Assembly: GCA_000182565.2 (NCBI GenBank)
Contig: KQ257451.1
Length of the DNA: 64,000 nucleotides
Direction: 5' to 3' (one strand)
Source: Spizellomyces punctatus DAOM BR117
Taxonomy: Eukaryota
Shown here: positions 12,698 through 39,609 of the stretch, in pieces
How positions within the stretch are numbered: position 1 is the stretch's first letter
Layout of the letters: every line of letters starts with the position of its first letter
Notes under the pieces: generated by a model
The model's input: the letters and a program-made list of their open reading frames with translations, nothing else
Databases searched by the model: none
Told to the model about the DNA's origin: nothing
Position numbers and translations under genes: made by a program

Positions 12698-12875
12698 GAA
12701 TGGGGATGATATAGTATAAGGAGGATTTAGACCATTACATGACTGTGCCACCCCTACATGACTGTGCCACACTGGAAGGTTACACAAGAGTGAGAATGGG
12801 TCACGTGGGGCGGGCCAGTAGAAAATCACGTGTTGATTGATAGCGTAATGGGTTACACAAGAGCGGAGTTTGAAA
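12698..12875 (+). repeat. Left terminal inverted repeat (178 bp)
   Basis: GAATGGGGATGATATAGTATAAGGAGG...GAGCGGAGTTTGAAA is the reverse complement of 39432-39609, apart from a 2-nt difference (TAGCGT vs TGACGT). Confidence 0.97.
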
Positions 12876-12899
12876 ATCACTCTTTGGGACTTTGAAATG

Positions 12900-13307
12900 T
12901 TAAAGCCAGAGTGAATAGTCTACTTCATTATACCAACGTCTCTTCATTTTACCCAAATAGCCGCCCACCCACTGATATGTACCCCTGTTCTCTGATACGT
13001 CAGACCTAAACTCTCTAACTGTAATCCATGAATCTAGCTGGGCAAGTGTCGGTTTATCCCCATCCGGGCGCCGTCTGTAGTAAACTTTCCACCCTCTGAC
13101 ATTATACCCAGAAACCCCACCACCAAGATAAAACGTATACACATCTAGCACAGTGTCGATTGCTGGTACACCCTCCATAACCAGGGGGTCATTTGGAAAC
13201 TGAAGTTTTGATAAGACTTTATCTTTTGCATCCTCGAACCGTGCCCGCCTAACAATCATCGTCTGAAGCTCGGCCGGTAGTTTGTCCCAGTGTGACTTGG
13301 CCGTCAT
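12900..13307 (-). CDS. Viral protein with an N-terminal F-box-like motif
   Basis: Begins SHWDKLPAELQTMI (LPxE(I/L)xxxI pattern); its ATG overlaps the upstream stop (ATGA). Confidence 0.6.
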   Translation of the reverse strand: MTAKSHWDKLPAELQTMIVRRARFEDAKDKVLSKLQFPNDPLVMEGVPAIDTVLDVYTFYLGGGVSGYNVRGWKVYYRRRPDGDKPTLAQLDSWITVREFRSDVSENRGTYQWVGGYLGKMKRRWYNEVDYSLWL

Positions 13308-13795
13308 AGTAATTGTCCGAGATAGTAAGAAGCTTTCTTGAAATCGGCCGTCTTGGTGTTGTCAGGTTTCTTGCCCGCTCTCGTCAGGTACTTGTAGACG
13401 TTTCCAATACAGAATCCCTCGAATTGCTCAGTCGACAGTTTGGCTTTCAGGATGTCGATCGTCTCGAGTCCGCCCTCTTTATAGTAGTCGGTTTTACCGT
13501 TAATAAAGAGTGTTGTACCGTTAAAACTTGCCGGTTGTTGAGATTCCACTTTGTTGCTGCTTGGTATAGAACGCTCTCCGATAGTTTCGTTGATATAGAC
13601 AGTCTGAAGTTTCGCCACTCCACTGCCGGGGGGATACACGTTGACCATCCTCTCTTTTGAAGAATCGTTGGTCTTCACAGCCACATAAGAGTTACCCGTT
13701 GTGTTCAAATACATCATACCAGTCCCGTTCATAGGAGCCACGTTGTCCATCTTCTTATAGTATGATTCCCCAACTGGCTCAAACGTGTAGAGCAT
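13304..13795 (-). CDS. DUF3310 (SaV/T7 gp1.7-like) domain protein, left copy
   Basis: C-terminal YYKEGGLETIDILKAKL..FEGFCIGNVYKYLTRAGKK..DFKKA.YYL; TATAAA at 13823-13828 on the minus strand; start at 13795 or 13750. Confidence 0.8.
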   Translation of the reverse strand: MLYTFEPVGESYYKKMDNVAPMNGTGMMYLNTTGNSYVAVKTNDSSKERMVNVYPPGSGVAKLQTVYINETIGERSIPSSNKVESQQPASFNGTTLFINGKTDYYKEGGLETIDILKAKLSTEQFEGFCIGNVYKYLTRAGKKPDNTKTADFKKASYYLGQLL

Positions 13796-13967
13796 GTAAG
13801 GGTAAAGTTTTCCACCGCCCCTTTTATAATGCCGTTCTCCCGAAAGGAGGGAAAGAAAAAGAAGCGACCTGTGACTGCCACACCTCATTGTCTTCCAAGG
13901 AAAAGAAAAGCTGTAAAGCTATAAAGGAAGCACTACGGCTCAACAACCCTGCACAGTTTTACACAAG

Positions 13968-14912
13968 ATGCACCAAAGTATATTCGATGGGCCAGGACAA
14001 CGAGAAGAGCAGTATTTGGATCTCATACGTGGCATTCTAGCATATGGGGAAAAACGCGCCGATAGGACAGGAACAGGCACACTAACCCTGTTTGCACCAC
14101 CTCAACTACGCTTTTCGCTGGATGGCAATAGCTTCCCTTTACTCACGACGAAGCGCGTACCGTTGCGTATGATTTTTGAGGAACTCATGTTTTTTATTCG
14201 AGGGCAGACAGATGCGACCATCCTGAGCAAAAAAGGGTGCAAGATCTGGGACGGAAATTCGTCTAAAAAAGCGTTGAAACACCTTGGGTTTGGTGACAGA
14301 CGGGCTGGGGATTTAGGTCCTGTGTACGGGTTTCAGTGGCGACATTTCGGGGCCGAATACACGAACGCGAAGGAGGATTATACTGGAAAAGGCGTGGATC
14401 AGTTGAAAGAAGTCATAAGACTTATCAAGGAAAATCCTACAGATCGAAGGATCGTCATGAGTGCGTGGAATCCAGCAGATCTATCAAAGATGGTGCTTCC
14501 ACCGTGCCACATGTTTTGTCAGTTCTATGTGTCTACACCCCCACCAGGGGAACCAGCGACTCTTTCGTGCCAAGTGTACCAGCGGTCATGCGACATGGGG
14601 CTTGGTGTACCTTTCAACATTGCAAGTTACGCTCTTCTCACCATCCTGATTGCGCATGTTACCCAGTTGGAACCAGGCGTGTTGATTCACTGCATGGGGG
14701 ACGCGCATGTGTACAATGATCATGTGGAGGCGCTCAAAGCGCAATTGGCGAGGAAGCCTAGACCGTTTCCGAAACTCTACATTTGGGGAAACGGGAGTAC
14801 ATCAACGACGGTAGATGAGATGGTTAAGGAACTGGAGGCGTTTGAGTGGGAACGGTTGAATTTGGTGGGGTACGAACCGCACCCTAAGATTACAATGAAC
14901 ATGTCTGTGTAG
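13968..14912 (+). CDS. Thymidylate synthase (ThyA/CDC21-type), virus-borne and intronless
   Basis: DRTGTGT, FAPPQLRFSL, FPLLTTKRV, GPVYGFQWRHFGA, LPPCH (catalytic Cys), YQRSCDMGLGVPFNIASY, GDAHVY. Confidence 0.97.
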   Translation: MHQSIFDGPGQREEQYLDLIRGILAYGEKRADRTGTGTLTLFAPPQLRFSLDGNSFPLLTTKRVPLRMIFEELMFFIRGQTDATILSKKGCKIWDGNSSKKALKHLGFGDRRAGDLGPVYGFQWRHFGAEYTNAKEDYTGKGVDQLKEVIRLIKENPTDRRIVMSAWNPADLSKMVLPPCHMFCQFYVSTPPPGEPATLSCQVYQRSCDMGLGVPFNIASYALLTILIAHVTQLEPGVLIHCMGDAHVYNDHVEALKAQLARKPRPFPKLYIWGNGSTSTTVDEMVKELEAFEWERLNLVGYEPHPKITMNMSV

Positions 14913-14927
14913 AAGTACAGAAAAGGT

Positions 14928-17900
14928 TTAAATAATCATAGGCCCTTGCCACCCTATAGGAAAGAGACGCCCCGTAGTCACATCCAATGTTCCTTTCATG
15001 TCTTTAGGTTTAAAGGCAAAATTCTTGAGAAAGTACTTTGTGAACACCCCTGAGCCCGGTTTGTACACAAACGTGAACTGTGGCACACCAACGACAGAAG
15101 CCTCGGACGCTGGATCTTGAAGATGTTCCAGCACAAGATCGACCATGATATCGAAATTGACAAGGGCAGATGTGGCGCGTTTGATGGAAAGCCCCTTACA
15201 TTTGACGACCGTCTCGCCGTCGGCCGCACGCAATCCGTATGTTTTAGGCCCCATACAGACAGCAGTCCGGATCCCCCCATGTTGGGTGTCTAGATCTTCA
15301 CGGGCCCATTCGCCCCACAGATCGCCTTCAGGGATATTGTAGTCTGCATCTGGGTCGTAGATGTAAACGATCGAGTCAGTATCATGCATCAACACACGAT
15401 CACCGAGCTTGTGAAGGTGTTCATGTAACATCAATCTACCGTAAGCAGGGACAAAGCAAGCAGCAGGCAAGTAGCCTTTATGGAGATTGACGCGGACAGT
15501 GCCAGTGTTACGAGTCGTCTTGATCACGCTCCGTGAGCCAATACGGGTGTACCCTTTGAAATGGTAATTGTTGGTGGAAATATTGTTGAAAAGAGCCCGT
15601 TCGGCGTCGTCGACAGGTCCATCGGCCAACACATGCACCATAGGTAAGTTGGGGTTCTCAGCATGTTTGCCCCATGCAGAATTCAACATGATTTTGAATG
15701 TCTTTTTGTACGCCGGCTGGTTCTTCCACCTATCAAAACTCTCCTGCACCATCTCGCCCATCCCGAACGACCGTTCGTAGGATGCAACCAGACGGGCTTG
15801 CTCTGCGAGGGAAGGAGTGTTCTTTGAGCTCGCCATTTTTTCAACGAACAAATCTTTTAGTAGGGGACCCCACAGACTCGGTCGTTTGGTGTACTGGTCG
15901 TAGCGGTACAGCTCTACCAATTCACAACCTACTTCGATGGCGCGTTTGAATTCCACCGATGTGAAGATACCCTCGACCATGCCGCAGGGGAATGTACATT
16001 TGACCGTGTCTGGGTTGAAAATAGGTAGAACCGGGTGGTACATGTTAGGAACCTTGACTTTAGCAGCGACAAACCCGAAAAACGTTTCATCAGCCATCAA
16101 CACATCGATGGAAGGTGATGCATTCGGAGCATAGTCCAAGGCAAGTTTACGATCTACACGGCGTCGTTTAACGTTGATTGAACAGTCTTCACACGGTATG
16201 GTTTCAGGATGTTCGTAGCACGGAAAATACCGATCGTCATATACGTGGATGGTAGGGTACCCCACAGGGTAGTCATTCGCCACCTGGACGTATGGATACA
16301 TGGACACAATATCCACATATCGAATCCTCACACCACGATTCCAGTCTTCGTCGCTGATGTGGTGGTACACTTTCCTTGCGTCTGTTCGACCCCCTCGCAG
16401 AGCCTTACGAGCGAACCAGTACTCGGAATAGGTCAACACAGCCCAGAACTCAGTTTGTGCCAAACGTTGAATCTCGCGCATGAACAACCCTTGGTCTGTT
16501 TTCGGGTCAGGTAGTGTAATGTCAGCGCAGAGTTTGCGTACGGACACCTCGTGGATGTACCCTGGAGCCGTCGGGTTGAACCAAGGGCTCATCCCGAATT
16601 TCCCACTCAGGATAGTGTGATACTGTTCAACGACACGCGCCAAGATCTCAACATCATTGACACAGTACGCAACAAGTTCCTCCATAAAGTTCCAAGGTTT
16701 ACCGAGTTGGGCGTCGTACCATGTGTTGAAAGCATCCAAATCGGCTTGTTTCAATACAGTGTAGGGTAAATCAAAATATTTTTTATCTGGAATCCCTTCG
16801 GTATGATTGTAGTTCTCGATGGAATTGAATAAATGGGGAAAATATCCTTTCCGCATACCACAATCGGCCCCGAGGAAATCGATAGCAAGACTTTTGAGAG
16901 ATCCTTGTAAATGAAGCATCGAATCGATGAAGGTGCACCACCCTAACGTGAAATGAACGATCTTGTTTCCACGCATGATGGGTTTGATGGGCGAATCGTG
17001 GCCGAATTCTTTACACGCTTCTTCATAGAGAAATCGTGAATCGTACCCACTGGCATTGTGAGCAATGATGATATGGCGCGCTGAATTGTCACTAAACATG
17101 CGCCGCAAAAACCGTTTGAGGCAATCGTCGCCAAAGTATGTTTCGACCTCCCCCTCGAAAACGTTTTTGAAGACGACCAAGTTCGGAACATGTTGATGAA
17201 TCTTTTCCCACCGTGTCACAACTGTTCCATCGTCATGACGAGCAAAATGATCGGGATGGTCTACGTCAGATTCCATCACCAACGTGTATTTGTCCTCAAC
17301 GATCTGCATCCGGCTTTCAATGTCGTAGGCCCATAATTTGTAAGTTTTAGGGGAATCGTCTTCATCGACAGCTTCACTGGAAACGAAATCTTCCACTGTT
17401 TGGTCTTGGTCGATTTCTTCAGACGATCCTTCAAACACCATGGACGATGGGCGTTCAGGGTCTTTCAACAAGATACACCGATGAAGAGATGTCTTGGCGT
17501 ATGGGACACGGCACACTTTACAACGTTTATTAGGACAATCGTGTTCGCCGTACTCTCCACATTCTCTACACTTTTTCATCGTCTTGGGGCGTTTAGTTGG
17601 GCGCATATCGGCAGTGACTGTATTGATAGGGCGCGGCGCCACACAGGCGGAGTGGGGGGTAGTTTGCAGGAACAACTCGACACAGGCGTGACAAAACGTG
17701 TAATTTCGTTGATTTCGACTTTTTAGTAATAACTCTTGTGGAGAACGGACGGCAGCGAAATGGGTTTGGTTCACGTCCATAGCGAGGTAGAGGCATTTGG
17801 AAATGTCGTCGTGGTCGAAAACGAAATCTTTACCGGCATACGTATGCTGACGAAACACCTTTTGGTGGTGGCTGTTCATCAGGATAGTGAGGCGGTACGT

Positions 17901-18650
17901 TGTAAAACGTTCGAGTTCGACGATGCGGCCGACTTGCTCAAGAGTGACTTCATCATCAAAACCGAGTTCGCGCTGTAAAGTGTACGCCCCACGATTGAAA
18001 CTGAGCATGTTTGCTTTACTGCGGTAGTGTTTACGATCCCATTCCAACAACATGTGTAGAGCGTACGCAGCACAGTTTATAGGTGTGCCGTCTTCCAATG
18101 TATGTTGGAGCCACGTACGACCGACGCCCCTGTCAGTATCCATCTTAAAAGGAGGTTTGATACATTTCCCCCCACTCCCGTGGATCATTGCGTTGGGGTC
18201 CAAGATGTAAGTCCATTGAATGTCGGATATACCCACGTCCGCTTGGTAAACGTTTTCCAAGATGTTCAAAAAGTTGTTAAAGTAAGCCACGTCAAGAGCA
18301 CCCACACGGATGGGGTCTTGATTGACGGTGAGCGAGCCATCCAATGTAGACCCTTGCATGTATCCCATAGCTGTAGCATTGATGTGGTCCACCGTCAAGT
18401 CGGAACGCCAGGTGGTGACAGCCCGAACGATCTCGTGGCGCATGATAGATGCCAAGGTACGTAACAAGGTGTTGTCATCGAACTGGGATTTCTCGAGCGG
18501 GGTGATAATGTACTCAAAGGAGACGCTTAAAGGACGGCCCGTGACTGTGTGGCGATCTACATCCAAGACGTATTCTGGGCGCCGTTCAGGTAGAGAAGGG
18601 GTAGAAGCTGAACGAGGGGTAGAACGGTTAGAGTCGCGAAAGAAAGACAT
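14928..18650 (-). CDS. Protein-primed family B DNA polymerase with a long N-terminal extension
   Basis: Exonuclease motifs AYDIES, AHNASGYDSRF, YCVNDV; polymerase motifs YVDIVSMYP, KIMLNSAWGK, HDTDS, GPKTY, KCKG; KGYFPH typical of pPolB. Confidence 0.96.
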   Translation of the reverse strand: MSFFRDSNRSTPRSASTPSLPERRPEYVLDVDRHTVTGRPLSVSFEYIITPLEKSQFDDNTLLRTLASIMRHEIVRAVTTWRSDLTVDHINATAMGYMQGSTLDGSLTVNQDPIRVGALDVAYFNNFLNILENVYQADVGISDIQWTYILDPNAMIHGSGGKCIKPPFKMDTDRGVGRTWLQHTLEDGTPINCAAYALHMLLEWDRKHYRSKANMLSFNRGAYTLQRELGFDDEVTLEQVGRIVELERFTTYRLTILMNSHHQKVFRQHTYAGKDFVFDHDDISKCLYLAMDVNQTHFAAVRSPQELLLKSRNQRNYTFCHACVELFLQTTPHSACVAPRPINTVTADMRPTKRPKTMKKCRECGEYGEHDCPNKRCKVCRVPYAKTSLHRCILLKDPERPSSMVFEGSSEEIDQDQTVEDFVSSEAVDEDDSPKTYKLWAYDIESRMQIVEDKYTLVMESDVDHPDHFARHDDGTVVTRWEKIHQHVPNLVVFKNVFEGEVETYFGDDCLKRFLRRMFSDNSARHIIIAHNASGYDSRFLYEEACKEFGHDSPIKPIMRGNKIVHFTLGWCTFIDSMLHLQGSLKSLAIDFLGADCGMRKGYFPHLFNSIENYNHTEGIPDKKYFDLPYTVLKQADLDAFNTWYDAQLGKPWNFMEELVAYCVNDVEILARVVEQYHTILSGKFGMSPWFNPTAPGYIHEVSVRKLCADITLPDPKTDQGLFMREIQRLAQTEFWAVLTYSEYWFARKALRGGRTDARKVYHHISDEDWNRGVRIRYVDIVSMYPYVQVANDYPVGYPTIHVYDDRYFPCYEHPETIPCEDCSINVKRRRVDRKLALDYAPNASPSIDVLMADETFFGFVAAKVKVPNMYHPVLPIFNPDTVKCTFPCGMVEGIFTSVEFKRAIEVGCELVELYRYDQYTKRPSLWGPLLKDLFVEKMASSKNTPSLAEQARLVASYERSFGMGEMVQESFDRWKNQPAYKKTFKIMLNSAWGKHAENPNLPMVHVLADGPVDDAERALFNNISTNNYHFKGYTRIGSRSVIKTTRNTGTVRVNLHKGYLPAACFVPAYGRLMLHEHLHKLGDRVLMHDTDSIVYIYDPDADYNIPEGDLWGEWAREDLDTQHGGIRTAVCMGPKTYGLRAADGETVVKCKGLSIKRATSALVNFDIMVDLVLEHLQDPASEASVVGVPQFTFVYKPGSGVFTKYFLKNFAFKPKDMKGTLDVTTGRLFPIGWQGPMII

Positions 18651-18778: not shown

Positions 18779-19480
18779 CTATGTGGCGCTCACGTTAGAC
18801 ACTGGAACGTCAACCAGGTCCACGGTGTCGGTACAACGTGCCATAAACAAGTTACACAGCCCTGTCCCCGGGGGCAACGTGATGACAGTGTCAGTGTTGT
18901 TTACCACGGACACGGTAACATCAAAAAAACTTTCTGAATCCAGCAAGATGTCACGGACGATTAGTCCAGGTACCGCAAAAGGATAGGGTCGTCCACAGAT
19001 GCGTCCAAGAAATCCCTTTGGAATCTGGATAGCGAATCCCAATGGGACGTCAACGGTCGCGCGGCCGGGGAGTACAAGCTTATAATCTGTTCGCAGGGAA
19101 AGGGTCCATCCAACGGAGTTACCGGTTCTGTACGGTAAGCGGGAAGAGTCGGTGTGGCGGAAACAGCGTAGCTCCACACGTTGAGACACCGCGAACAAAT
19201 CTCGTTTCGGGTCTGCGGGCGCGGCGGGTCTCGGGCGTTGGTACGGAAACATCCGTTGTACAGACTGTCGCCCGTGGTCGACGGGCGTCTGAAGAGGTTG
19301 CGCAGACGTTCCGTACGCCGGCGGAGCGTGTCCACCAGTACCGTGGAAAGCCTGCGTCGTGGCAGAGGGCTGGTGGTAGGTGCTGGTTGGCGTTGTGGAG
19401 AAGTTGTGTGGGCTAGGGCCTGGTTGGGCCATTTGCGCGAAGTCGTTCGAGGTGGGATGACCACAGGCATACGAATCCAT
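18779..19480 (-). CDS. dUTPase-fold protein with degenerate catalytic motifs and a low-complexity N-terminus
   Basis: LPGRATVDVPLGFAIQIPKGFLGRICGR and VVNNTDTVITLPPG fit the trimeric dUTPase fold; motifs I-IV are altered and motif V is absent. Confidence 0.75.
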   Translation of the reverse strand: MDSYACGHPTSNDFAQMAQPGPSPHNFSTTPTSTYHQPSATTQAFHGTGGHAPPAYGTSAQPLQTPVDHGRQSVQRMFPYQRPRPAAPADPKRDLFAVSQRVELRCFRHTDSSRLPYRTGNSVGWTLSLRTDYKLVLPGRATVDVPLGFAIQIPKGFLGRICGRPYPFAVPGLIVRDILLDSESFFDVTVSVVNNTDTVITLPPGTGLCNLFMARCTDTVDLVDVPVSNVSAT

Positions 19481-19801: not shown

Positions 19802-20425
19802 ATGACCACACCCACCATTCTCGGATTGTTGTTGGCTGACAAACAAATTGGAGTCGCCAAGTTTGCCATCGACGATGCCAGCGACAAGACTGTGTACACA
19901 CCGTTTGTTTACAATGGTAAACAACTGGTTCTCGAATGTCAAGGGCACTTGGCTGCCAGCGGCATAAAGATCTTCAAGAACGGCAAGTCCGAAAATCATG
20001 TCATCAGTATTGTCATGGACGATTCCGATGTGTTGGAATCCTTGGTCGACATGTTGGGGGCGTTGCCTCAACTTGCGCAAGGCGAAGAAGAATGGGAACC
20101 CAAACATCCGACGTGGAACGGACGTGTGGACTTTTCTCTTGGAGTCAACAAAAAGAGCGGCGCCTACTACGCCGACATCACGCCGAAATTCACCCCAAAG
20201 ACCGCCTCCAAACAAGAGACCAATCTACAGAAGGGGTACAGTTGTGAGATTGTTTGTTCCGTCAAGGCGTACATCAACCCAGAGAAAAAGTCGTACGGAT
20301 TGGCGTTGGGTGTGCGCAAAGTCACCGTCGATAAATCCAACGTGAAGGAAATTGAGTTCAATGAACGTGAATACGATGATCTCGAAGTGATCATGTTGTG
20401 TAAGTTTTTATTTGTGTTTGTGTAG
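19802..20425 (+). CDS. Putative OB-fold single-stranded DNA-binding protein
   Basis: Beta-rich 207 aa with LQKGYSCEIVCSVKAYI..SYGLALGVRKV followed by an acidic stretch, resembling T7 gp2.5/NCLDV-type SSBs; lies in the replication-gene region. Confidence 0.5.
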   Translation: MTTPTILGLLLADKQIGVAKFAIDDASDKTVYTPFVYNGKQLVLECQGHLAASGIKIFKNGKSENHVISIVMDDSDVLESLVDMLGALPQLAQGEEEWEPKHPTWNGRVDFSLGVNKKSGAYYADITPKFTPKTASKQETNLQKGYSCEIVCSVKAYINPEKKSYGLALGVRKVTVDKSNVKEIEFNEREYDDLEVIMLCKFLFVFV

Positions 20426-20911: not shown

Positions 20912-21760
20912 ATGGAATCCATCCACTCTACAATCCAATGGTTCAAGGACATGTGCGAGCGTAAATTGAAGGACCCCCCTCCCATCGCACTTGACTTAAA
21001 GTACGGATACGGCGTGGAGGAAGACGATAACGACACGGTGATCGACGAGGATACGGACTCTGTGTTGGTAGAGCGTTTGACGGAAGGATTATGGATTGTA
21101 CCTGTAAACGCCCCAGCCAGACTCGACGACTATTGGACCATGTTCAGGTACACATTTCCCGAACAGCAACGTAGTGGCCTCGCGTATCTACTCATCGAAC
21201 GTCGCGACGCAGCGCTGGAAATGGCCACCGAAACGGCCATCAACGCTCAGTGTGTGATGTCGCCAGCGTTGAAACGCAGGTTCTTGCACCTGGCGCTGGA
21301 ATCGCGTATGGAGTTGAGACGAAGGGAGGTGGTTCTCCTCAACTTCCAGGTGCACACAGGCTTGTTGGGGATCCGCTCAGGGTGTGTTGGGGAACTGTTT
21401 TTGGCCTGTTCTGCGCTGCACCGGATCCGCGTGTTTTTGTACGATCTGTTGGAGAAGGACTTGGTGACGCGGGGGCTTGGGAAGAACTTGAAGAAAGCCA
21501 AGCATGACCACCCGACGGCCATGAAGCGGGTCATGTTGCTGAATGCGAAACCATCTCGTTCAATGGGGTTTGACGATCTCGCGATGAACTTGCCCCACCA
21601 ACTGGATTTGGTGGCCACCTACTTTCAAACATTAATGGATCACATGATTCGGGACGATCGTTACGTAATTAGATTTGAGGAATTAAGTGTATTAACGCGT
21701 TTATGTGACATGGCCGTCAAAAGTATGGGTGGTGTATTGAGTCTATGCCTACACGAATAA
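20912..21760 (+). CDS. Viral hypothetical protein (282 aa, helical)
   Basis: Long ORF with TATATAAA at 20855-20862 upstream. Confidence 0.7.
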   Translation: MESIHSTIQWFKDMCERKLKDPPPIALDLKYGYGVEEDDNDTVIDEDTDSVLVERLTEGLWIVPVNAPARLDDYWTMFRYTFPEQQRSGLAYLLIERRDAALEMATETAINAQCVMSPALKRRFLHLALESRMELRRREVVLLNFQVHTGLLGIRSGCVGELFLACSALHRIRVFLYDLLEKDLVTRGLGKNLKKAKHDHPTAMKRVMLLNAKPSRSMGFDDLAMNLPHQLDLVATYFQTLMDHMIRDDRYVIRFEELSVLTRLCDMAVKSMGGVLSLCLHE

Positions 21761-30029: not shown

Positions 30030-30080
30030 CCATAAAAGGAAATGTAAATTATGTGTAACAATATATTACTGTGAAAAACA

Positions 30081-32250: not shown

Positions 32251-32306
32251 TGCGCTTTATTTTTGTGTGTAAACCATAAGTAGTAGTAGTAGTAGTACAA
32301 TACATT

Positions 32307-33179
32307 ATGCCCCAAGCTGTCGGTAAAGCTGCGTTCGGTATCGCTGATTTTTTACGTTACAATGAAGTGTATTTCGACTCTTCTGAACGGACGTATGGCA
32401 CGACCAATTCTCCAAATTATTCGGTGAAACCACTGACCAATGTCGTGGGGTTCAAACTCCTTGACGCCCAAATTCCGTTCTCGTATTACGTGTTTCCCGA
32501 GGGTCGCAACACGTTCCAGCTGTACGAACCGGCTACCGACGCCACAACGACCGTCACCATTCCGCCTGGAAATTACACGCCTTCGTCGTTCGTAGCCGTA
32601 CTGCAGACCGCCTTGGAAACGGCTGGTGACGCCGAGTACACCGTCGCCTTCTCCACTCCCACGGGCAAATTCACGATTACGTCCAGCGTGGCTGAACCGT
32701 TTGCGGTCACATTTGACTTTGACGGGCCAGGGCCGTGGATCGGGTTCACACATGCAGCCACGTTTACGGCCTCGGCGGGCGGTGTCTTAGTCGCTCCGTT
32801 CGTGGCACGACTGAGTGGGCCTGATTACATCTATGTCTGCTCCCAGTCCCTTGGGTTCCTCAATTACAATACGTTGCGGCTCGGTGACGCCTCGACGTCC
32901 GGCGCCGTGGTCGCTAAAATCCCTGTGACGGTGAATCCAGGTGGGGTCATCACATGGACGGACCCAGACCCAACAAAACTGTTTGAATGTGATGTGGGCG
33001 TGTTGGAACGTGTGGATTTGTATGTGGCCGCTGGGGGCGATGTGACCACTCCACTGGATTTCAACGGTGCACCGTTTTCCTTGAAATTTATGTTTGTCAC
33101 GTCTGACGATATCTATGTTAAACGTGGCGCTGGGGATACATTGGGAAATCCGACCAAGCGGATGATGTTTTCGAATTGA
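32307..33179 (+). CDS. Minor capsid (penton, single jelly-roll) protein
   Basis: VYFDSSER, NVVGFKLLDAQIPFSYY, VTIPPGNYT, DYIYVCS, VVAKIPV, PLDFNG are motifs typical of PLV/virophage pentons. Confidence 0.85.
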   Translation: MPQAVGKAAFGIADFLRYNEVYFDSSERTYGTTNSPNYSVKPLTNVVGFKLLDAQIPFSYYVFPEGRNTFQLYEPATDATTTVTIPPGNYTPSSFVAVLQTALETAGDAEYTVAFSTPTGKFTITSSVAEPFAVTFDFDGPGPWIGFTHAATFTASAGGVLVAPFVARLSGPDYIYVCSQSLGFLNYNTLRLGDASTSGAVVAKIPVTVNPGGVITWTDPDPTKLFECDVGVLERVDLYVAAGGDVTTPLDFNGAPFSLKFMFVTSDDIYVKRGAGDTLGNPTKRMMFSN

Positions 33180-33223
33180 ATTTTTGTATGTAAACATAAA
33201 GTATATCAATACATCCCATTACT

Positions 33224-35074
33224 ATGGAACGTCTTTCTCGTACGACACAACCGCCCAAAAACCCGGTCGTGACCGTTGGACCGCAAGGTCCGCTTGGCGC
33301 CACCCTTACTGGCCGTCAAGTCGTAGACACGCGCCGCGGGTACCGACAAGTCGATGTCAAACCTAAACTCCATGCCCAACGCGTGGATACCGTGGCTCCC
33401 GAAGTGAAAGGCAAATTTTGGGGCCGCCCCACATTCAAGACCCAGTACGGTTGGAAATTCCATGATTACAGAGCTCCGGATCTGTACCATGAACCTATCC
33501 TCAGTCCGCTCAAACAATTCGATTGGACCAACAAGGTCGCCACAACCATTCAGGCCGCTGACCGTACGGGGTCAAAGAACCCATGGGTTCCAAAAGCCAA
33601 CCCTGGAGGGTTGTTGGTCAAACCGAAAAATTATTTGACACGTGGGTCGAACTTGAGGACGTTGGAAACTGTTGATGAATATGGAAAACCGTTCATCCCT
33701 GACGTCATGGATTGGGAACGTACTCACAAAGATAACCTCAATCTTGAACGATCGGTTGTGGACCGCTACGATGCTCACTATGACGACCCAATGGAAACTG
33801 ACACCATCTTCTCTGGCCCTCCAAAAAATGATATGAAAGCGCGTGCCGCATCTGAACGTACTCAATTGAATGCATTGTTGAAAGCATTGGACAATGCTCG
33901 GTCACATAACATTGAACTCTCACCGCAGATGGCGGAAACTTTATCTCAATTGGAATCAGTGGCGAAGGACGCGGCCGATGCCATGGAAGGGATCGAACAC
34001 GTGGGCTATATCCAGCGCGCCACTCAGCCTTCCAAAACCGCTGCCGCAGAATCCGGCTACACGGCCCAAGCCATCCACCAATTCATTGCGATCCTCGATG
34101 GGATCAAGGCGGCTTCATTGACATCCTTACCCGAGACCGCATCACAAATGTGGTACGAACGTGTCTTGGACCAAGTGGAATCCTTGTCCCAAGCGTTCGG
34201 ATTCTTGTCTGAACGTTTGAATGATGATTCCGTGCCTAAAAACCAATTGGAACGGCAACACGGGATCCTTGTCGATGTCGAGAAGAGGGTTGGTTTACTC
34301 ACTGTCTATGCCCTCCACGGTCAACGTACACAGATGCGCCCCCAAGAAATGAATGCCAACGTGACTTACATCCACAACAAACTCGGTGAATGTTTATTGT
34401 GGGTGAACCAGCTGCTCCACTCTAAGGGGTACTCTGCCACAGCCGCCAACGGTTACCAAGACGTCCCTGCAACCGCTTCCGAGTTTGAGGATATTAGTGC
34501 GGCATGGGAAGATCTGTTGACCATGGCAGACGCCCCAACCCAACGTGCCATGGCGCCGGTCCTTAACGCGTTACGCCCTGCGCGTGAATCATTGAGTAAT
34601 ATTGCCATGGACATGGACATCACGCCTACGGCCATTGCCCCGGCTATTGGTAATGATATAGATGTAGAACGCTCGGCCGCAACCGGTGTTAGCAGCAGCG
34701 GCGGTGAAGGCGTCGCTGGTGGCGAGGCCTCGGCCACGGCGGTCACTCACACGGTCGTCCCCCAAACGACTGTCACTGGCACCAACCTCCCTGACGTAAC
34801 GGATGAGGAAATTGATACTTTCATTCAAACCGGTCAATTTAGGGCGGAATGGGGAATTCGCACTAAGGCTCAACGTGACCCCAAACGTCTTATACGTAAT
34901 AATGCATTTCGGGAAAGGGTCCGTACAACCCTCGCCCGTGAGAAAGCATTGACCCAACAACCGAGACGCAATACCATTAATCTGGATAAGCTCACCCCAC
35001 GAAAGACCGTCCTCCAACCTCCTGCAGCCCCGTCTACGTCCGTTGTACACGATGCTGACACTGAAGCCATGTAA
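33224..35074 (+). CDS. Viral hypothetical protein (616 aa), possibly a virion core protein
   Basis: Long ORF in the structural cluster, preceded by the TGTATGTAAACA motif; basic N-terminus, helical middle. Confidence 0.7.
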   Translation: MERLSRTTQPPKNPVVTVGPQGPLGATLTGRQVVDTRRGYRQVDVKPKLHAQRVDTVAPEVKGKFWGRPTFKTQYGWKFHDYRAPDLYHEPILSPLKQFDWTNKVATTIQAADRTGSKNPWVPKANPGGLLVKPKNYLTRGSNLRTLETVDEYGKPFIPDVMDWERTHKDNLNLERSVVDRYDAHYDDPMETDTIFSGPPKNDMKARAASERTQLNALLKALDNARSHNIELSPQMAETLSQLESVAKDAADAMEGIEHVGYIQRATQPSKTAAAESGYTAQAIHQFIAILDGIKAASLTSLPETASQMWYERVLDQVESLSQAFGFLSERLNDDSVPKNQLERQHGILVDVEKRVGLLTVYALHGQRTQMRPQEMNANVTYIHNKLGECLLWVNQLLHSKGYSATAANGYQDVPATASEFEDISAAWEDLLTMADAPTQRAMAPVLNALRPARESLSNIAMDMDITPTAIAPAIGNDIDVERSAATGVSSSGGEGVAGGEASATAVTHTVVPQTTVTGTNLPDVTDEEIDTFIQTGQFRAEWGIRTKAQRDPKRLIRNNAFRERVRTTLAREKALTQQPRRNTINLDKLTPRKTVLQPPAAPSTSVVHDADTEAM

Positions 35075-35141
35075 TTATTTTTTAAATGTAACCTACTCTT
35101 ATAAATACCATTGGCCATTCTTTTCCCCTATTTCCTTCGTG

Positions 35142-35498
35142 ATGGTTAAACCCAATGCCAAGGGTAAAAACCCAACCAAAACGCCACATTCCAAACGCCA
35201 AAAGGCCCAAACAGCCCTTAGGATTGACACCTCAGCAAAGACTGGCTCTGGACAAAAAGGCCGGCGTCTCGTTCGTAACGGGAAAGGTCAAACCGCCAAA
35301 GTTCGACCCGGCGGATCTATTCCATCATCCTCCACAAAGAAAAGATATCATCCCTCCCACGATACGATTAGCAAAGCCGCAGCCGCCGCCAAGCTTGTCA
35401 AAGGAGCCGTTGGGTTCATCCAAGGACTTAAAACCAATCACACCGCAGTCACCAGTATGGGCGGTACAGGCAAACCCTACTCCGACGTACGAAAGTGA
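35142..35498 (+). CDS. Small Lys/Arg-rich protein, putative DNA-condensing core protein
   Basis: 118 aa, very basic, TATAAA at 35100-35105; overlapped by +1-frame ORF 35155-35604. Confidence 0.5.
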   Translation: MVKPNAKGKNPTKTPHSKRQKAQTALRIDTSAKTGSGQKGRRLVRNGKGQTAKVRPGGSIPSSSTKKRYHPSHDTISKAAAAAKLVKGAVGFIQGLKTNHTAVTSMGGTGKPYSDVRK

Positions 35499-35652
35499 CA
35501 CTAGTCGTAGTAGTTGTGATGAGGATGGGTGGTGGGACGTGACCGTCGACTCCACATCTTCCGATTCTGATAGTGATGATAATTCTGATGATGAGCAAGT
35601 ATAAATAGATCGTCTTCCGTAGATTTTCTCCCCTTTTTACTCCCAATACAAC

Positions 35653-36054
35653 ATGTTGTCTCCACGTATCACGGTGTTCCACTACCCTGAAGGCCATAAC
35701 TCCTTTGATATACTCACAGGAGAGATCATCAATACGATGCATAAACACAACTTTTGTCCGATGGTAGATGCCCTCCATGGCCATGACGAGACGTGGCTTT
35801 TCGAAACATTTCACAACGTTCAACATCATCGATTCGTTTTCATGACCATGCATGGATTCGTTTCTGCACCTGTCGACCGTATAAAGGACAACACGTTTGG
35901 CGACCCTAGTTTTGTCATTTATTTTCCTGACGATCCTGATCTCGTTGTTCCTTGGAAATCTATCGTTTTATATTTCGAAGGGATATTTGGGTTACGTGCA
36001 CCTGTTTTCATAGACGATACGTTGAGGTACTTTCTCGGTGTCGAAAAAGCATAA
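35653..36054 (+). CDS. Viral hypothetical protein (133 aa)
   Basis: ATG ORF with TATAAA at 35600-35605. Confidence 0.6.
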   Translation: MLSPRITVFHYPEGHNSFDILTGEIINTMHKHNFCPMVDALHGHDETWLFETFHNVQHHRFVFMTMHGFVSAPVDRIKDNTFGDPSFVIYFPDDPDLVVPWKSIVLYFEGIFGLRAPVFIDDTLRYFLGVEKA

Positions 36055-36107
36055 ATAGACAGCATAGCAACGGATTTCCCCTTTCCCACTTTTTATTACA
36101 CCAATAT

Positions 36108-36278
36108 ATGGTTGTGCTCAGTCCTGTTCAGTTTTGGTGTGCCATCATATTTGTTGTCTTTGTACCTTTGATCTCACTTGTTGGGCTGTTGGTCTATCAA
36201 CATACTCAGAGCGCTAAACTTGCCGTCGCCGAAACCGTTCGCCAGCAACACCACAGCGCGTGCACATCTCCATTATGA
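36108..36278 (+). CDS. Small single-TM viral protein (56 aa)
   Basis: Hydrophobic FWCAIIFVVFVPLISLVGLLVY; its stop overlaps the next ATG (ATGA). Confidence 0.5.
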   Translation: MVVLSPVQFWCAIIFVVFVPLISLVGLLVYQHTQSAKLAVAETVRQQHHSACTSPL

Positions 36279-36895
36279 CGAAAATCTATAAAGCCTCGCT
36301 CGCCGATATCACCAATGTGTTGACGGGTGGTTCGCCACCTGCCAAGAAACAAGGAGGTCGTAAGCGTAAAGAGAATCCTGTCGAGGAACCGCCTGAAGCT
36401 ACTACTCAGCCTGAGGCGACTAATGAGCCAGAAACCCCTCAACAACGTCGTAACCGGCTAGCCCGCGAACGCCGTCAAGCCAAGAAATCGGTTTCTGTCG
36501 AGCCCGTTCCCGAACCTGTTACTGAACCCGTTCCTGAGCCGCCTGTGCCTGAACCTCCTGTCGTTGAACAGCCTGTTGAACAGCCCGTGGAACAACCAGC
36601 TACCCAGCCCACTGTTGAACAGCCTAAAAAGAAGAAACAGCGTACGGAACGGCCTAGCGGAGCCCCGCCGAAATGGTTTGTCGATTCTTACAACAATATC
36701 ATCAAACATGTGTTGGACTACAAAGTGGCTACTGAGACCAACGCTCAATTGGCGCCTACTGTCGCTGCGGCTGCTCAACAGAAATGGGACGAACAAAAGA
36801 ATGAAGTTGCCCCTTTGGAGGATAAATTGTTTTCTGAAATGTTTGGTAGAGCGTTTGGCCGTAGTCACCGTAAACCAGCTAGGAAACTGCTTTGA
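36275..36895 (+). CDS. Viral Pro/Glu-rich protein with NLS-like basic clusters
   Basis: PEPV/EQPV repeats, PAKKQGGRKRK, PKKKKQR, conserved-looking PPKWF motif. Confidence 0.7.
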   Translation: MTKIYKASLADITNVLTGGSPPAKKQGGRKRKENPVEEPPEATTQPEATNEPETPQQRRNRLARERRQAKKSVSVEPVPEPVTEPVPEPPVPEPPVVEQPVEQPVEQPATQPTVEQPKKKKQRTERPSGAPPKWFVDSYNNIIKHVLDYKVATETNAQLAPTVAAAAQQKWDEQKNEVAPLEDKLFSEMFGRAFGRSHRKPARKLL

Positions 36896-36929
36896 TTTTT
36901 AAATGCAAATAAACATTGTATTGTACACA

Positions 36930-38559
36930 ATGAACGTGACGCCTAAAATTGTACGTAAACATCAAACTGTGCGTGTAGCACAAGGGTTGCCAGGCCACCA
37001 ACGCGACCGTGATGGCACCTTGCTGTCGCTGGACGTGGCTTCTGTACCGGAAGATGAGACAGATCACCATCCCGCCCCACCACACCCCGCGCTGCTTCCA
37101 CACGAAACGTCGCTGCTGCTCGTCGCGTCAAAGGGGTCCGGCAAGACGACGTTGATCTGTAATTTGCTCGATTTCTACAGAGCATTTTTTCATACAATAC
37201 TTGTGTTCAGCCCCACAATCAACAACGATTCAAAATGGGTGAGTACCTCTTCTTGTCTTTTCCGTTTACGGTTGGCCAGCATGACGATGGCTCGCCGTTG
37301 GTTTTCATACCGCGTCACCCATTCGAGGTTATCTGCGCGGTTGTTTTTGGTGTTGCCGTCGATATGGTCAATCTCGGGTGAACAGTGTTTAAGGAGCGAA
37401 TGTTTTTCGTCTGGATAAAATGTGTCTCCAACAATACGATGGATGAGGTAGTTTTTGTACTTGATCATGACTTGCATGTAGCCGTTACTGCCGATGTACC
37501 CAAACGTACGTCCACCGTTCGCATGTTCTATACGCCCATGTGACGAGACTTTGACTGGTAGGGTTGGGTGGTCAAACCATACTTCGTACTCGCCAGGCTG
37601 TAACATGAGGTCTTGATTGGCGTATTTCCATTCGTAACCCCGATAACGGAATTGAGTATTGCCGTGTTTTTTGAAGTGATACCATAACGTTGGTTGGGAT
37701 ACCCCGATTGATTTTGCCGCAGCGTTTATAGATCTGAATTCTGTTTCTGAATCGTCCAACTCGATTCTAACCACTCTTCTATTTGCTGGTGTCCATTTCC
37801 TCATTTTTCTCATAGGATTGGGTCAAGGGCCAGAAACTGTTGGCGCGCAACACAAAACTCGAAAAGTTTGTCAAATCCCTCGAAACGAAAAGGGCCCGCG
37901 ACCTTTCAGGCGTTGTCGTAGGGCGTGAACCGATGGAGTTGGCTAGAGAACGGGAGAAGGAAGACGATATTGTCGACGAGGATGATTTCACAGGATATAT
38001 CCCCGATGAATGTTTTCTCGACGATTACAATGAACAGATGCTGGTCGATGTGATGAATGAACAAGACAAGTTAATCAAATGGCTTAAAGCCCACGGAGGG
38101 CACAAGACGGTTGCGAATCGCCTTTTACTGATTTTCGATGATATGGTCGGGTCGTCCCTCTTTTCGAACGCAAGAAACAATGCCTTCAAACGTCTCAACT
38201 CCAATCTGCGCCACTACTCTGCTTCTGCCATTATTGTGTCCCAGTCGTACAAGGAACTTCCACGCATCTGCCGAGTCAATGCCTCGGGTGTCATCTTGTT
38301 TGAAACGCCTAATGAAAAAGAGTTGGAAGTGTTATACGAAGAAAATCCTTGCTCGCTCAAGAAAAACGATTGGCTTTCCTGTTATTACGAATGTACAGCT
38401 GACCCATTCTCGTTCATGATGATCAACTATAAGCGGCCGAAACAACTCAGGATCTCAAAACGATTCGATGAGTTTTTGCTGTGCGATACGATGAAAGGTA
38501 TCCCGGATCGACGGCCACCAATGAGATCTGCCGCAGATGACCATCCACCAACCATATAA
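36930..38559 (+). CDS. DNA packaging ATPase (A32/FtsK-HerA), 2 exons: 36930-37238 and 37816-38559 (350 aa)
   Basis: Walker A LLVASKGSGKTT in exon 1; Walker B LLLIFDDMVG and LRHYSASAIIVSQ in exon 2; a phase-0 GT-AG intron joins NNDSKW-DWVKGQ. Confidence 0.92.
37190..37813 (-). CDS. Intron-encoded HNH homing endonuclease (antisense to ATPase)
   Basis: NUMOD1-like EFRSINAAAKSIGVS, VSSHGRI, GYMQV, and canonical HNH_3 LIHRIVGDTF..IDHIDGNTKNNRADNLEWVT..EN. Confidence 0.92.
   Translation of the reverse strand: MRKMRKWTPANRRVVRIELDDSETEFRSINAAAKSIGVSQPTLWYHFKKHGNTQFRYRGYEWKYANQDLMLQPGEYEVWFDHPTLPVKVSSHGRIEHANGGRTFGYIGSNGYMQVMIKYKNYLIHRIVGDTFYPDEKHSLLKHCSPEIDHIDGNTKNNRADNLEWVTRYENQRRAIVMLANRKRKRQEEVLTHFESLLIVGLNTSIV
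37239..37815 (+). other. ATPase intron (577 nt, GT-AG) containing an antisense HNH endonuclease gene
   Basis: Donor GTGAGTAC at 37239, branch-like TTCTAAC at 37765-37771, pyrimidine tract, first AG at 37814-37815. Confidence 0.9.
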
Positions 38560-38600
38560 AAGTCGTGGCTTGGCTAGGTTTTTCCCTGCCACCAACAAAA

Positions 38601-39008
38601 ATGACTTCTTCCGACTATTATGCGTTCCGATACGAAATCATTACCTTACATGCTGGCGTTGATGTCCGAGCGGTCGTCGAAGTCCGAAAACCTGGCTGCC
38701 GGCTCCCGTTTACTGACGTAATCACGAATTACCATACCCGTGGCTTGAAACCTGTGTTTACGGATCTGTTTATTTCCGCTGATTGGGGGACATGTTTGGC
38801 TGATTACAAGTTTTTGCGCCAATTGTGGGACGACCTAGAAATGGACGGAACGTTTGATGTTGACATGTTACTCAGCGACGCCACGCGGCGGTGCCTACCC
38901 CAAACCGAGGCGCTGATTCCAGACGCCGAGCCTCGTGTATATAGACGTTCTTTGGAAGAAGTGCGTGATCGGATTATGGCGCTTGTCCCTGTCACTCTCA
39001 CCGAATAA
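38601..39008 (+). CDS. Viral hypothetical protein (135 aa)
   Basis: ATG 38601 with TATAAA at 38555-38560. Confidence 0.6.
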   Translation: MTSSDYYAFRYEIITLHAGVDVRAVVEVRKPGCRLPFTDVITNYHTRGLKPVFTDLFISADWGTCLADYKFLRQLWDDLEMDGTFDVDMLLSDATRRCLPQTEALIPDAEPRVYRRSLEEVRDRIMALVPVTLTE

Positions 39009-39091
39009 ATAAAACGCCTCACTTGTAAACAATGTCTTGTCTATTTAAACTCCTCCAAAACTTTTCTTATTTCTGTCCTGACTGTACACGT

Positions 39092-39424
39092 ATGGGCTTA
39101 TTCGACCCTACACCCCCACTCATGGCTTCCACCCCCGCATTAGGCCCATTCCCTTCCAACGCCCCTCGCCCAGCAGGCTTTTTTGCGACAGTTGCTGAAC
39201 CGGCCCAAACTCCTCCCCCGGCGGCCGATTATTACAAGGAGGGCGGGCTTGAGACCATCGACATTTTGAAAGCCAAACTGTCGACTGAACAATTCGAGGG
39301 ATTCTGTCTTGGAAACGTGTACAAGTACCTGACGAGAGCGGGCAAGAAACCGGACAACTCCAAATCCGATGATTTCAAGAAAGCGTACTATTATTTAGGC
39401 TTGCTGGCTGGTCCTAAAGAGTAA
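39092..39424 (+). CDS. DUF3310 (SaV/T7 gp1.7-like) domain protein, right copy
   Basis: DYYKEGGLETIDILKAKLSTEQFEGFCLGNVYKYLTRAGKKPDN; abuts the right TIR; alternative start at 39032. Confidence 0.8.
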   Translation: MGLFDPTPPLMASTPALGPFPSNAPRPAGFFATVAEPAQTPPPAADYYKEGGLETIDILKAKLSTEQFEGFCLGNVYKYLTRAGKKPDNSKSDDFKKAYYYLGLLAGPKE

Positions 39425-39431
39425 TGTAGAC

Positions 39432-39609
39432 TTTCAAACTCCGCTCTTGTGTAACCCATTACGTCATCAATCAACACGTGATTTTCTACTGGCCCGCCCC
39501 ACGTGACCCATTCTCACTCTTGTGTAACCTTCCAGTGTGGCACAGTCATGTAGGGGTGGCACAGTCATGTAATGGTCTAAATCCTCCTTATACTATATCA
39601 TCCCCATTC
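39432..39609 (-). repeat. Right terminal inverted repeat (178 bp)
   Basis: TTTCAAACTCCGCTC...ATCATCCCCATTC matches the left TIR in inverted orientation. Confidence 0.97.

Follow-up and report, generated by a model that had tools for sequence, protein, structure and literature searches.

The locus studied here raises two linked questions: whether a Polinton-like virus (PLV) carried in a fungal genome is intact and expressed, and how its capsid and packaging genes are read when both are interrupted by long insertions. The analysed window comprises 64,000 nucleotides (nt), one strand of contig KQ257451.1 of the Spizellomyces punctatus DAOM BR117 assembly GCA_000182565.2. The PLV element occupies window positions 12698-39609 (26,912 bp) and lies inside a contig of 2,165,103 nt. 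We conclude that it is very probably an integrated, genetically intact and transcriptionally active PLV of a Spizellomycetales chytrid, with endonuclease-bearing spliceosomal introns in the genes of its major capsid protein (MCP) and its packaging ATPase.

A PLV in a fungal genome is in itself no discovery, having already been published. Bellas and Sommaruga 2021 (Microbiome 9:13, PMC7805220) described one integrated PLV from the soil chytrid S. punctatus, which has a novel MCP and lies amid the sequence of a large contig, and a group of 27 viruses named for this S. punctatus PLV was suggested to be possible double-stranded DNA (dsDNA) fungal viruses. The element is most probably the same S. 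punctatus PLV, and the provirus is not new: the two agree in the chytrid order of the host and in the integration within a large contig, and the penton protein is 98% identical to one from Spizellomyces sp. 'palustris' (19,300-nt contig). In the main text of PMC7805220 the word 'intron' occurs 0 times, and its passages on the S. punctatus PLV speak of neither splicing, endonucleases nor expression. Besides, a literature search on the genus and species found no paper on splicing or expression of a Spizellomyces PLV. What appears to be new, as not found in print, is the division into exons and introns, with a micro-exon among them, the presence of antisense HNH genes within PLV introns of the spliceosomal type, the recurrence and polymorphism of these endonucleases in relatives, and the clear transcription of the provirus.

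Four public runs (X3, X11, X19 and X20) were compared with the window over positions 22700-42690, and 81 related loci served for comparison, one from IMG/VR found by an alignment-based search and 80 kept of 149 metagenome relatives; a single-protein locus search of IMG/VR returned 0 loci. In X3, 26 of the 28 contigs were placed at an identity of at least 99% to the window. We read X3 as a transcript assembly because it contains exon-exon joints, its contigs are bounded by genes and its depth on the host flank is zero; its depth spans 0 to ~130 across bins and reaches 149 in single contigs.

The MCP gene consists of three exons on the plus strand, i.e., exon 1 (30081-30970), placed by homologue alignment and an X3 contig, a micro-exon of 18 nt (31498-31515) and exon 3 (31578-32250). 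The X3 contig, with a depth of 138, runs through 30066-30971, continues with 17 letters of 31499-31515 and resumes at 31578, leaving out intron A (30971-31497, plus strand, 527 nt, GTGAGT..AG) and intron B (31516-31577, plus strand, 62 nt, GTGAGT..CAG). The micro-exon, read from the loose-end letters of X3, encodes the residues PIKFG(T) and brings back the conserved GGVPIKF motif, and the spliced product reads ..GG-V-PIKFGT-WHTF.., with the motif GG-VP(I/L/M)(K/Q)xxx-(W/F) being conserved in 10 out of 10 full-length MCP homologues examined. A two-exon model, in which 30081-30970 is joined to 31578, is 6 conserved residues short of the same homologues and was dropped because the X3 contig showed the micro-exon. 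In a minor X3 contig (depth 17.6), part of intron A is kept, while a 76-nt GT..AG segment (31140-31215) and intron B are removed.

The gene of the A32-type packaging ATPase is divided on the plus strand into exon 1 with the Walker A motif (36903-37238) and exon 2 with Walker B (37816-38559). Its frame is interrupted at GTGAGT at 37239 and is resumed past the TAG ending at 37815, which delimits a plus-strand intron of 577 nt (37239-37815, GTGAGT..TAG). The X3 joint 37238|37816 removes exactly these 577 nt, again with GT..AG boundaries, and the two halves abut exactly in all seven intron-less relatives in which both alignments reach the junction (L070, L069, L026, L003, L057, L058 and L076). In the X20 DNA reads, none of these splice joints is listed at ~17-120 reads per site, and the spliced forms are therefore RNA and not intron-less DNA.

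The MCP and ATPase introns are spliceosomal and not self-splicing. HNH and NUMOD endonucleases, such as those found within these insertions, are typical of group I introns (PMC12768974), which would speak for self-splicing introns (group I or II) or for simple disruption of the genes, and not for spliceosomal introns. We regard this as a most improbable alternative, considering that Rfam gave 0 matches at the gathering threshold in the whole window and no intron family even at E <= 1 over 30800-38000 (one chance miRNA match only), that the boundaries are GTGAGT..YAG and the spliced contigs use exactly those sites, and that the equivalent introns of relatives have branch sites of the ACTAAC/ACTAAT type just before the 3' AG.

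Interruption of the MCP gene was also observed in the relatives. The homologue search at E <= 0.001 found 375 proteins for MCP exon 1, 120 of them at E <= 1e-30, and interruptions of at least 35 extra nt were mapped with the full-length homologue P0127 on the window and on the 29 loci having any MCP match. They were present in 10 loci besides the window. The boundaries are GT..AG in seven loci (L011, L014, L033, L057, L063, L056 and L058), and in most of these a branch site resembling ACTAAC/ACTAAT lies a short distance ahead of the 3' AG. The additional letters at residues 145-191 in L022, L042 and L057 may represent loop insertions, the boundary in L057 being devoid of a splice signal, and the interruption in L065 is ambiguous. 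Three of the 150 MCP cluster representatives terminate exactly at ..GGV, as would be expected of a gene caller running into the intron at the GGV site. These PLVs thus commonly have spliceosomal introns, a sign that nuclear expression is a trait of the group as a whole.

Both long introns of the window house an endonuclease gene on the strand opposite to the interrupted gene. The one in the ATPase intron (37190-37813, minus strand) has an HNH_3 domain (E 2e-10) and a NUMOD1 domain (E 3.8e-4), and minus-strand RNA reaches a depth of 23.9 in the corresponding bin (36707-37373). The open reading frame (ORF) in MCP intron A (30975-31478, minus strand, with the frame open on to 30675) combines an HTH with a degenerate HNH_3 domain, which scores E 0.083. 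Its product is related to the HNH protein of the ATPase intron (29% over 66 amino acids (aa), E 5e-6) and to the HNH protein in the MCP intron of L056 (25% over 158 collinear aa, E 0.004). Homologues of these endonucleases occur in three of the 81 loci, L056, L057 and L058, each within an MCP interruption and on the opposite strand, so that, the window's two genes included, the orientation is antisense in five out of five. HNH_3 scores are 3e-12 in L056 and 1e-10 in L058, both of which also have NUMOD domains.

L056 has the micro-exon architecture of the window at the same codon. Its MCP exon ends in ..GGAGGAGT, followed by a GTAAGT intron with an antisense HNH gene, a CTAAC branch site and TTTTTAG. 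The micro-exon of 21 nt then completes the V codon of exon 1, encodes PIKFSS and opens the W codon, and downstream of it a 33-nt GTGAGA..TAG intron precedes the remainder of WHTF. L056 and L058 are close to each other, with pPolB almost identical (terminal branches of 0 and 0.013) and few differences throughout the MCP exons, yet they differ in their introns. Following ..FPAQ, the MCP gene of L058 is interrupted by an HNH-bearing intron of 563 nt, but that of L056 by no more than a short stretch of additional sequence. At the GGV site, it is L056 that carries the HNH-bearing intron, together with micro-exon and intron B, whereas L058 shows a 27-nt GTAAG..TTAG mini-intron there and lacks intron B. 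In addition, each of the two has one small intron that is absent from the other. The MCP introns of 26-33 nt with GT..AG boundaries that stand beside the endonuclease-bearing introns of ~470-560 nt (L056 1080-3470, L058 4600-6990) are very short, which hints at a host with unusually short introns.

The presence and absence of endonucleases at shared sites in L056 and L058 is what a cycle of homing, decay and loss would predict, which is not to be taken as proof of such a cycle. We propose that the window's MCP and ATPase introns are candidate spliceosomal homing introns ('shintrons'), the homing step of which we infer from these comparisons and from the insertion site shared with distant relatives. 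In this scheme, the HNH endonuclease would cut the intron-less allele of a co-infecting relative, and the intron would then be copied in by recombinational repair, while splicing by the host would keep the essential gene functional. Each intron endonuclease gene would be transcribed independently, in antisense. Intron B, the antisense reading of which holds a TATATAAA box upstream of the intron-A ORF, would provide the TATA box for that gene, and the micro-exon between the endonuclease intron and the 62-nt intron B keeps the conserved GGVPIKF strand.

Endonuclease-bearing spliceosomal introns were described in 2025, in uncultured mirusviruses only. That study (Nat Microbiol 2025, PMC12768974) defines shintrons, counts 334 endonuclease genes carried by introns, the HNH types of which target MCP genes, presents the association of intron and endonuclease as unseen earlier, proposes homing during co-infection and calls for laboratory cultures. 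The introns of the window share with those of mirusviruses the GT-AG boundaries with no group I/II signatures, the location in genes of virion morphogenesis and the HNH genes. Accordingly, what identifies a shintron was found here as GT..AG boundaries, removal in X3 (read as transcripts), no ribozyme signature and an intron-borne endonuclease gene. On the other hand, mirusviruses belong to a different realm, related to tailed phages and herpesviruses (PMC12768974), whereas the window holds a double jelly-roll PLV with a cultured and identified host, direct evidence from spliced transcripts, endonucleases that are antisense in all five cases and an MCP gene divided by a micro-exon and a second mini-intron. 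The literature search on shintrons found no relevant paper other than this one, the only further match being unrelated. In cryptophyte PLVs (PMC12220804), endonuclease genes are described as free-standing or fused and group I introns are reported separately, with none of them given as spliceosomal. The occurrence in an unrelated lineage, with spliced transcripts and a host that can be grown in the laboratory, suggests that homing into spliceosomal introns may be a strategy found generally among DNA viruses that are expressed in the nucleus. Concrete features for any mechanism to explain are the antisense orientation and the micro-exon and mini-intron that preserve the capsid strand.

Transcription of the element is seen in ordinary RNA libraries, which is not induction. 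In X19, the reads pile at 3' ends; with the fibre and MCP genes as a guide to strand, the first mate corresponds to the RNA sense. Poly(A) ends were found at 23442 for the fibre gene (21 reads), at 32327 for MCP (27 reads) and at 35056 (26 reads), and the depth at viral 3' ends was 44-105 compared with at most 0.54 on the host flank (40042-42690). MCP was the deepest gene in X3, with bin depths of 75-132 versus 12-24 for the fibre gene; the ATPase region had 34-70. TATAWA was strongly enriched upstream of the genes, occurring 13 times versus 0.94 expected (p = 3e-11, ~14-fold) in the 1870 nt that lie 16-100 nt upstream of 22 ORF starts. It precedes 10 of these 22 ORFs, mostly at -43 to -57, and is absent from the structural genes. 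The earlier note on this locus had read introns and TATA boxes as a sign that host RNA polymerase II and the spliceosome are used, a view borne out by the GT..AG spliced contigs, the poly(A) ends and the TATAWA enrichment. Expression by host RNA polymerase II and spliceosome would thus be nuclear, and the nuclear type of expression suggests that replication is nuclear as well.

TTGTRTGTAAAC occurs in the window as only 2 exact matches, ~40 nt upstream of the penton gene and of ORF 33224. As a shared promoter it was rejected: with up to 2 mismatches it occurs 17 times versus 11 expected, and 5 of 100 shuffles were as high, which is not significant. The copy at 32263 sits in the 3' untranslated region of MCP. 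The genes in this part are tightly packed, the MCP poly(A) site at 32327 lying 20 nt past the penton start codon at 32307.

The element is bounded by terminal inverted repeats (TIRs) at 12698-12876 and 39431-39609, for which no strand is assigned and which were delimited by repeat search and pairwise alignment. The repeat search gave inverted arms of 198 nt at 94% identity (12681-12878 and 39429-39626), and in the pairwise alignment near-identity begins at 12698 and 39609 and extends over ~179 nt with 2 mismatches, followed by a 6-nt indel. The ends proposed in the earlier note, with near-identical TIRs of 178 bp, were therefore correctly placed. A second inverted pair (13317-13491 and 39225-39399, 175 nt, 86%) reflects a DUF3310 gene at both ends of the element, each copy reading toward its own terminus. 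The spacing between TIR and DUF3310 repeat is ~440 nt on the left (12879-13316, with the ORF at 12900-13307) and ~30 nt on the right (39400-39428), a difference that represents an insertion or deletion specific to one end.

The host flanks are those of a chytrid chromosome. The stop of the host ORF 11242-12579 lies 118 nt before the left TIR, and the flanking genes encode the small chain of carbamoyl-phosphate synthase, an F-box protein, a thioredoxin-like protein, a lysine methyltransferase and others, as well as a chitin synthase carrying myosin-motor and cytochrome-b5 domains, in line with the suggestion that the insertion lies ~118 bp past a host stop codon among housekeeping genes. The best named relatives of the flank synthase all belong to Spizellomycetales (Powellomyces 83%, Phlyctochytrium arcticum 82%, Geranomyces 79% and Gaertneriomyces 77%). 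With 0.47-0.54, the element differs little in G+C content from its flanks (0.46-0.51).

At the left junction, three X20 DNA reads reach 39609 and go on with left-flank sequence in reverse complement; although placed on the identical right TIR, they come from the left junction. At the right junction, X20 coverage is unbroken across 39609 into the flank at a depth of ~5-6 per strand, a depth and not a count of bridging reads. Read support across both junctions had been proposed as a check; it was obtained for the left one, where reads join the TIR end to the flank, and takes the form of continuous coverage at the right one. In favor of an episomal or contaminating viral genome misjoined to a host scaffold, junction reads number only three on the left, with none explicitly for the right, and X20 depth over parts of the element is above that of the flank. 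Such an artefact is nevertheless hardly credible, as the library of the three reads consists of independent raw DNA and in them the TIR end and the left flank meet at the exact letters, coverage runs on across 39609, and PMC7805220 likewise places the S. punctatus element in the middle of a large contig.

No target-site duplication was found at either reading of the element ends, nor any direct repeat, because the left flank ends in ..AACAAGA and the right flank starts with AGGAATT... The Pfam scan, which covered nearly all ATG-started ORFs of at least 125 aa and some shorter ones, detected no integrase, including the retrovirus-like rve. As both an integrase gene and a target-site duplication are missing, the PLV would have entered the chromosome with no integrase of its own. 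The 2 mismatches between the TIRs suggest that the insertion is possibly recent.

The gene set is that of a PLV. We modelled the MCP fold on P0127 (50% identity to exon 1 and 40% to exon 3) because the window's own MCP is split; the underlying alignment had 55 rows and included the window's two MCP pieces. The model (pLDDT 86.2, pTM 0.88) matched double jelly-roll MCPs in Foldseek, with that of SGIV (8hif, E 1.6e-15) as the best, besides those of PBCV-1 (Vp54), Faustovirus, EhV, mavirus and Sputnik. The window's own 290-aa penton protein (32307-33179, plus strand; Pfam DUF5901, 33 homologues) gave a model with pLDDT 80.6, the best match of which was the mavirus penton (6g41, E 2.6e-10), followed by the pentons of PBCV-1, Sputnik and adenovirus. 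Structure modelling thus identifies the MCP as a double jelly-roll and the penton as a single jelly-roll vertex protein. The earlier note had staked its interpretation on MCP and penton modelling as jelly-rolls, and both do, through the P0127 model and the penton's own. The packaging ATPase is of the A32/FtsK type (Pox_A32, E 1.3e-6), with Walker A and B motifs read in the sequence.

DNA polymerase pPolB (14928-18650, minus strand, 1240 aa; Pfam DNA_pol_B_2, E 8.7e-34) agrees with an alignment of 27 sequences at all invariant columns, among them the motif positions of exonuclease and polymerase. Its N-terminal third (residues ~1-500, window 17150-18650) is conserved across the group, with invariant C192 and H296 and eight zinc-finger-like Cys/His positions at residues 319-389; no Pfam family was found in this region, and ESM Atlas language-model features led to unnamed eukaryotic clusters only. 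It could be a terminal-protein, protease or DNA-binding domain. The genome would be replicated as a linear, protein-primed molecule from the TIRs. Thymidylate synthase (13968-14912, plus strand) is full-length (Pfam Thymidylat_synt, E 3.6e-103) with TATAAAGG at -48, and a dUTPase-like protein is encoded at 18779-19480 on the minus strand (Pfam dUTPase, E 2.5e-6). A full set of replication and morphogenesis genes with no evident frameshifts had been noted in the sequence, and pPolB, MCP, penton, A32 ATPase, thymidylate synthase and dUTPase are all uninterrupted or cleanly spliced. Together with the TIR boundaries, the jelly-roll capsid models and the chytrid flanks, this sustains the initial proposal of a PLV endogenised in a fungal genome.

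The double jelly-roll MCP, the penton, the A32/FtsK-type ATPase and a genome within ~15-40 kb with TIRs are the features by which PLVs are recognized. Polintons or Mavericks share pPolB, TIRs, a double jelly-roll MCP, a penton, an A32 ATPase and integration in eukaryotic chromosomes with the element, but in the strict sense they also have a retroviral-type integrase, an adenain-like protease and a target-site duplication, and these were not found here; among the Pfam-scanned ORFs there was neither an adenain-like cysteine protease nor any other protease family. The target-site duplication of Polintons is ~6 bp. Integrated elements of PMC7805220 that bear an integrase are reported with a duplication of 5-7 bp. 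A chitinase, which 52% of the S. punctatus PLV group possesses according to the same paper, was also absent from the scanned ORFs.

The position of the element among its relatives is supported by several genes. The pPolB search (E <= 0.001 among 8000 scored candidates) gave 564 homologues, many of those listed being 40-49% identical and located on contigs of ~20-27 kb, the size of a whole PLV genome. The nearest non-self pPolB is 81% identical and lies on a 23,640-nt contig, on which pPolB and penton together are 80-81% identical to those of the window. When 188 ORFs of the window were compared with the 81 loci by tblastn, matches were obtained for pPolB in 81 loci, MCP exon 1 in 28, MCP exon 3 in 26, the VLTF3-like protein in 24, the penton in 23, a lipase-like ORF and each ATPase half in 12, ORF 33224 in 7 and ORF 38601 in 2. 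Thymidylate synthase, dUTPase, DUF3310 and the remaining ORFs had no match in these loci, and the fibre gene had 1 weak match. In the root metatranscriptome X11, contigs 90-95% alike cover most of the compared part of the element (22700-39531), indicating that a close relative of the PLV or of its host is present in the plant-root sample. A 12,395-nt X11 contig spans 27089-39328 with both long introns unspliced, which, for an RNA library, may be carried-over DNA.

Some of our observations weigh against an intact, active PLV with homing introns. X3 carries the label 'DNA?', its cDNA nature being deduced from the features given above, and the coverage of X19 over the splice sites is too thin for joints. 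The MCP-intron endonuclease is degenerate and may be inactive. On the pPolB tree, which comprised 25 rows (the window and those 24 of the 81 loci that also hold MCP), the intron states required 7 changes compared with a shuffled mean of 7.5 and are not clustered, and this scatter would fit mobility and repeated loss equally well. The match of the VLTF3-like protein is weak and under the curated Pfam cut-off. No pile-up of read ends at 39609 or the termini was seen among the best-supported X20 rows listed, and neither virions, free linear genomes nor excision were observed.

These last points bear on whether the element still makes virus. It could be an endogenous viral element that is transcribed but no longer infectious, having become fixed in its host lineage, with genes that are perhaps co-opted or just leaky in expression and with no virions produced, and we give this a substantial chance, somewhat short of even. 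The listed read data have no free ends or extrachromosomal signal, neither an integrase nor an excision function is encoded by the scanned ORFs, the abundant antisense RNA at 35057-36166, which is spliced and has no ORF, could reflect silencing by host or virus, and the MCP-intron endonuclease looks degenerate. However, the core genes are all in open and conserved frames, including a micro-exon that needs precise splicing, the TIRs differ at only 2 of ~179 positions, and MCP is by far more deeply represented in X3 than the fibre gene. Moreover, the close relatives (the 98%-identical penton, the contig with pPolB and penton at 80-81%, and the ~93% relative from the root sample) point to a circulating virus.

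The dependence of the element on another virus has also to be considered. Virophages are expressed in the cytoplasmic factory of a giant virus. The MCP and penton folds of mavirus and Sputnik are among the closest solved structures, and mavirus integrates in host genomes as well (PMC8547959). The element might be a PLV of virophage type, which would need a giant virus of the Mycodnaviridae in zoosporic fungi and act when integrated as a defence against it. In favor of this, a VLTF3-like gene is kept in 24 of the 81 loci, the structural genes have no TATA box, and TTGTRTGTAAAC before the penton and ORF 33224 could be a promoter of the late, virus-specific kind; zoosporic fungi do have giant viruses (PMC13533422), and PLVs have been proposed as defence systems of protists (PMC12220804). 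Yet virophages need a giant DNA virus (PMC8547959, 10.1101/2022.07.28.501842), whereas MCP and ATPase of this element require the nuclear spliceosome and its polyadenylated transcripts come with no sign of a giant virus. The VLTF3 match (E 0.0076) is weak, TTGTRTGTAAAC is not enriched overall, and the paper on Mycodnaviridae nowhere mentions 'Spizellomyces' in its main text (0 occurrences). We therefore consider dependence on a giant virus improbable.

The virus TSV, to which the element can be likened by description only, has the alga Tetraselmis as its host. It is a nuclear lytic PLV that needs no giant virus, and its description (10.64898/2026.06.19.733378) contains no mention of integration in the parts concerned; the same source cites the S. 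punctatus PLV and adds chytrid ATPase hits. For fungi, dsDNA viral regions have been reported in 153 assemblies, and the same preprint states that fungi have yielded no isolate of a Baltimore class I virus (10.1101/2025.04.19.649669). With an intact PLV being transcribed in a cultured chytrid, the existence of productive small dsDNA viruses of fungi becomes a question that can be answered by filtering culture supernatant. A bolder possibility, which we put forward tentatively and hold to be rather doubtful, is that the element is a replication-competent fungal dsDNA virus, chronically or sporadically produced in ordinary cultures, with HNH introns actively homing between co-circulating PLVs. 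If true, it would provide a laboratory system of a dsDNA virus and its fungus, and an experimental system for spliceosomal homing introns outside mirusviruses.

The remaining genes of the element are of less certain function. The DUF3310-domain proteins are encoded at 13304-13888 on the minus strand (left copy, E 9.2e-17) and at 39032-39424 on the plus strand (right copy, E 6.1e-18), the latter with a plus-strand RNA depth of 105 in bin 38708-39374. The VLTF3-like protein (Pfam Pox_VLTF3) lies at 22613-23404 on the minus strand, next to a repeat-rich, fibre-like protein of 1790 aa (23497-28869, minus strand) with weak Pfam hints only. Upstream of MCP, an ORF with a GFSLGGS motif (28914-30029, plus strand) encodes a putative alpha/beta-hydrolase or lipase-like protein; its Pfam matches are weak (E 0.028), and an assignment by PDB sequence search was rejected, having given one chance match at E 0.22. 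The function of several ORFs is unassigned, i.e., those of 135 aa at 12900-13307 (minus strand; no Pfam family, unmatched in the 81 loci), 207 aa at 19802-20425 (plus strand), 282 aa at 20912-21760 (plus strand, TATA box at -57), 616 aa at 33224-35074 (plus strand; weakly conserved, no Pfam family), 206 aa at 36275-36895 (plus strand, rich in proline and glutamate) and 135 aa at 38601-39008 (plus strand). No tRNA genes were found in the window.

Between ORF 33224 and the ATPase gene, a spliced polyadenylated antisense RNA was observed at 35057-36166 on the minus strand, with an X19 depth of 55.7, a poly(T) end at 35056 in X19 and introns at 35567-35717 and 36002-36165, the X3 joints of which read CT..AC on the plus strand. 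It overlaps the plus-strand ORFs 35155-35604 and 35653-36054, and the ORFs of this region are unconserved in the 81 loci. A minus-strand protein gene at 35-36 kb was rejected, the spliced RNA having no ORF above 45 aa, and the transcript may be an antisense regulatory or silencing RNA.

In X20, which is ChIP-seq DNA, depth reached 40-70 per strand direction over 28703-31370 and 36040-38040, as against ~2-9 over the rest of the element within the compared range and 1.2-2.4 for the host flank. Each block contains one of the introns with an endonuclease gene, along with the promoter side of the gene concerned (MCP or ATPase), and the peaks could represent chromatin (ChIP) enrichment or extra copies. 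At position 30891, A>G was found in 105 of 176 X20 DNA reads (60%) and in 11 of 13 X19 RNA reads, with 0 in X3 at a depth of 138, and X11 has G; a second copy or allele may be present in the X19/X20 strain. At 32256, which is 6 nt past the MCP stop, T>G was observed in 41 of 111 plus-strand RNA reads and in 0 of 8 DNA reads.

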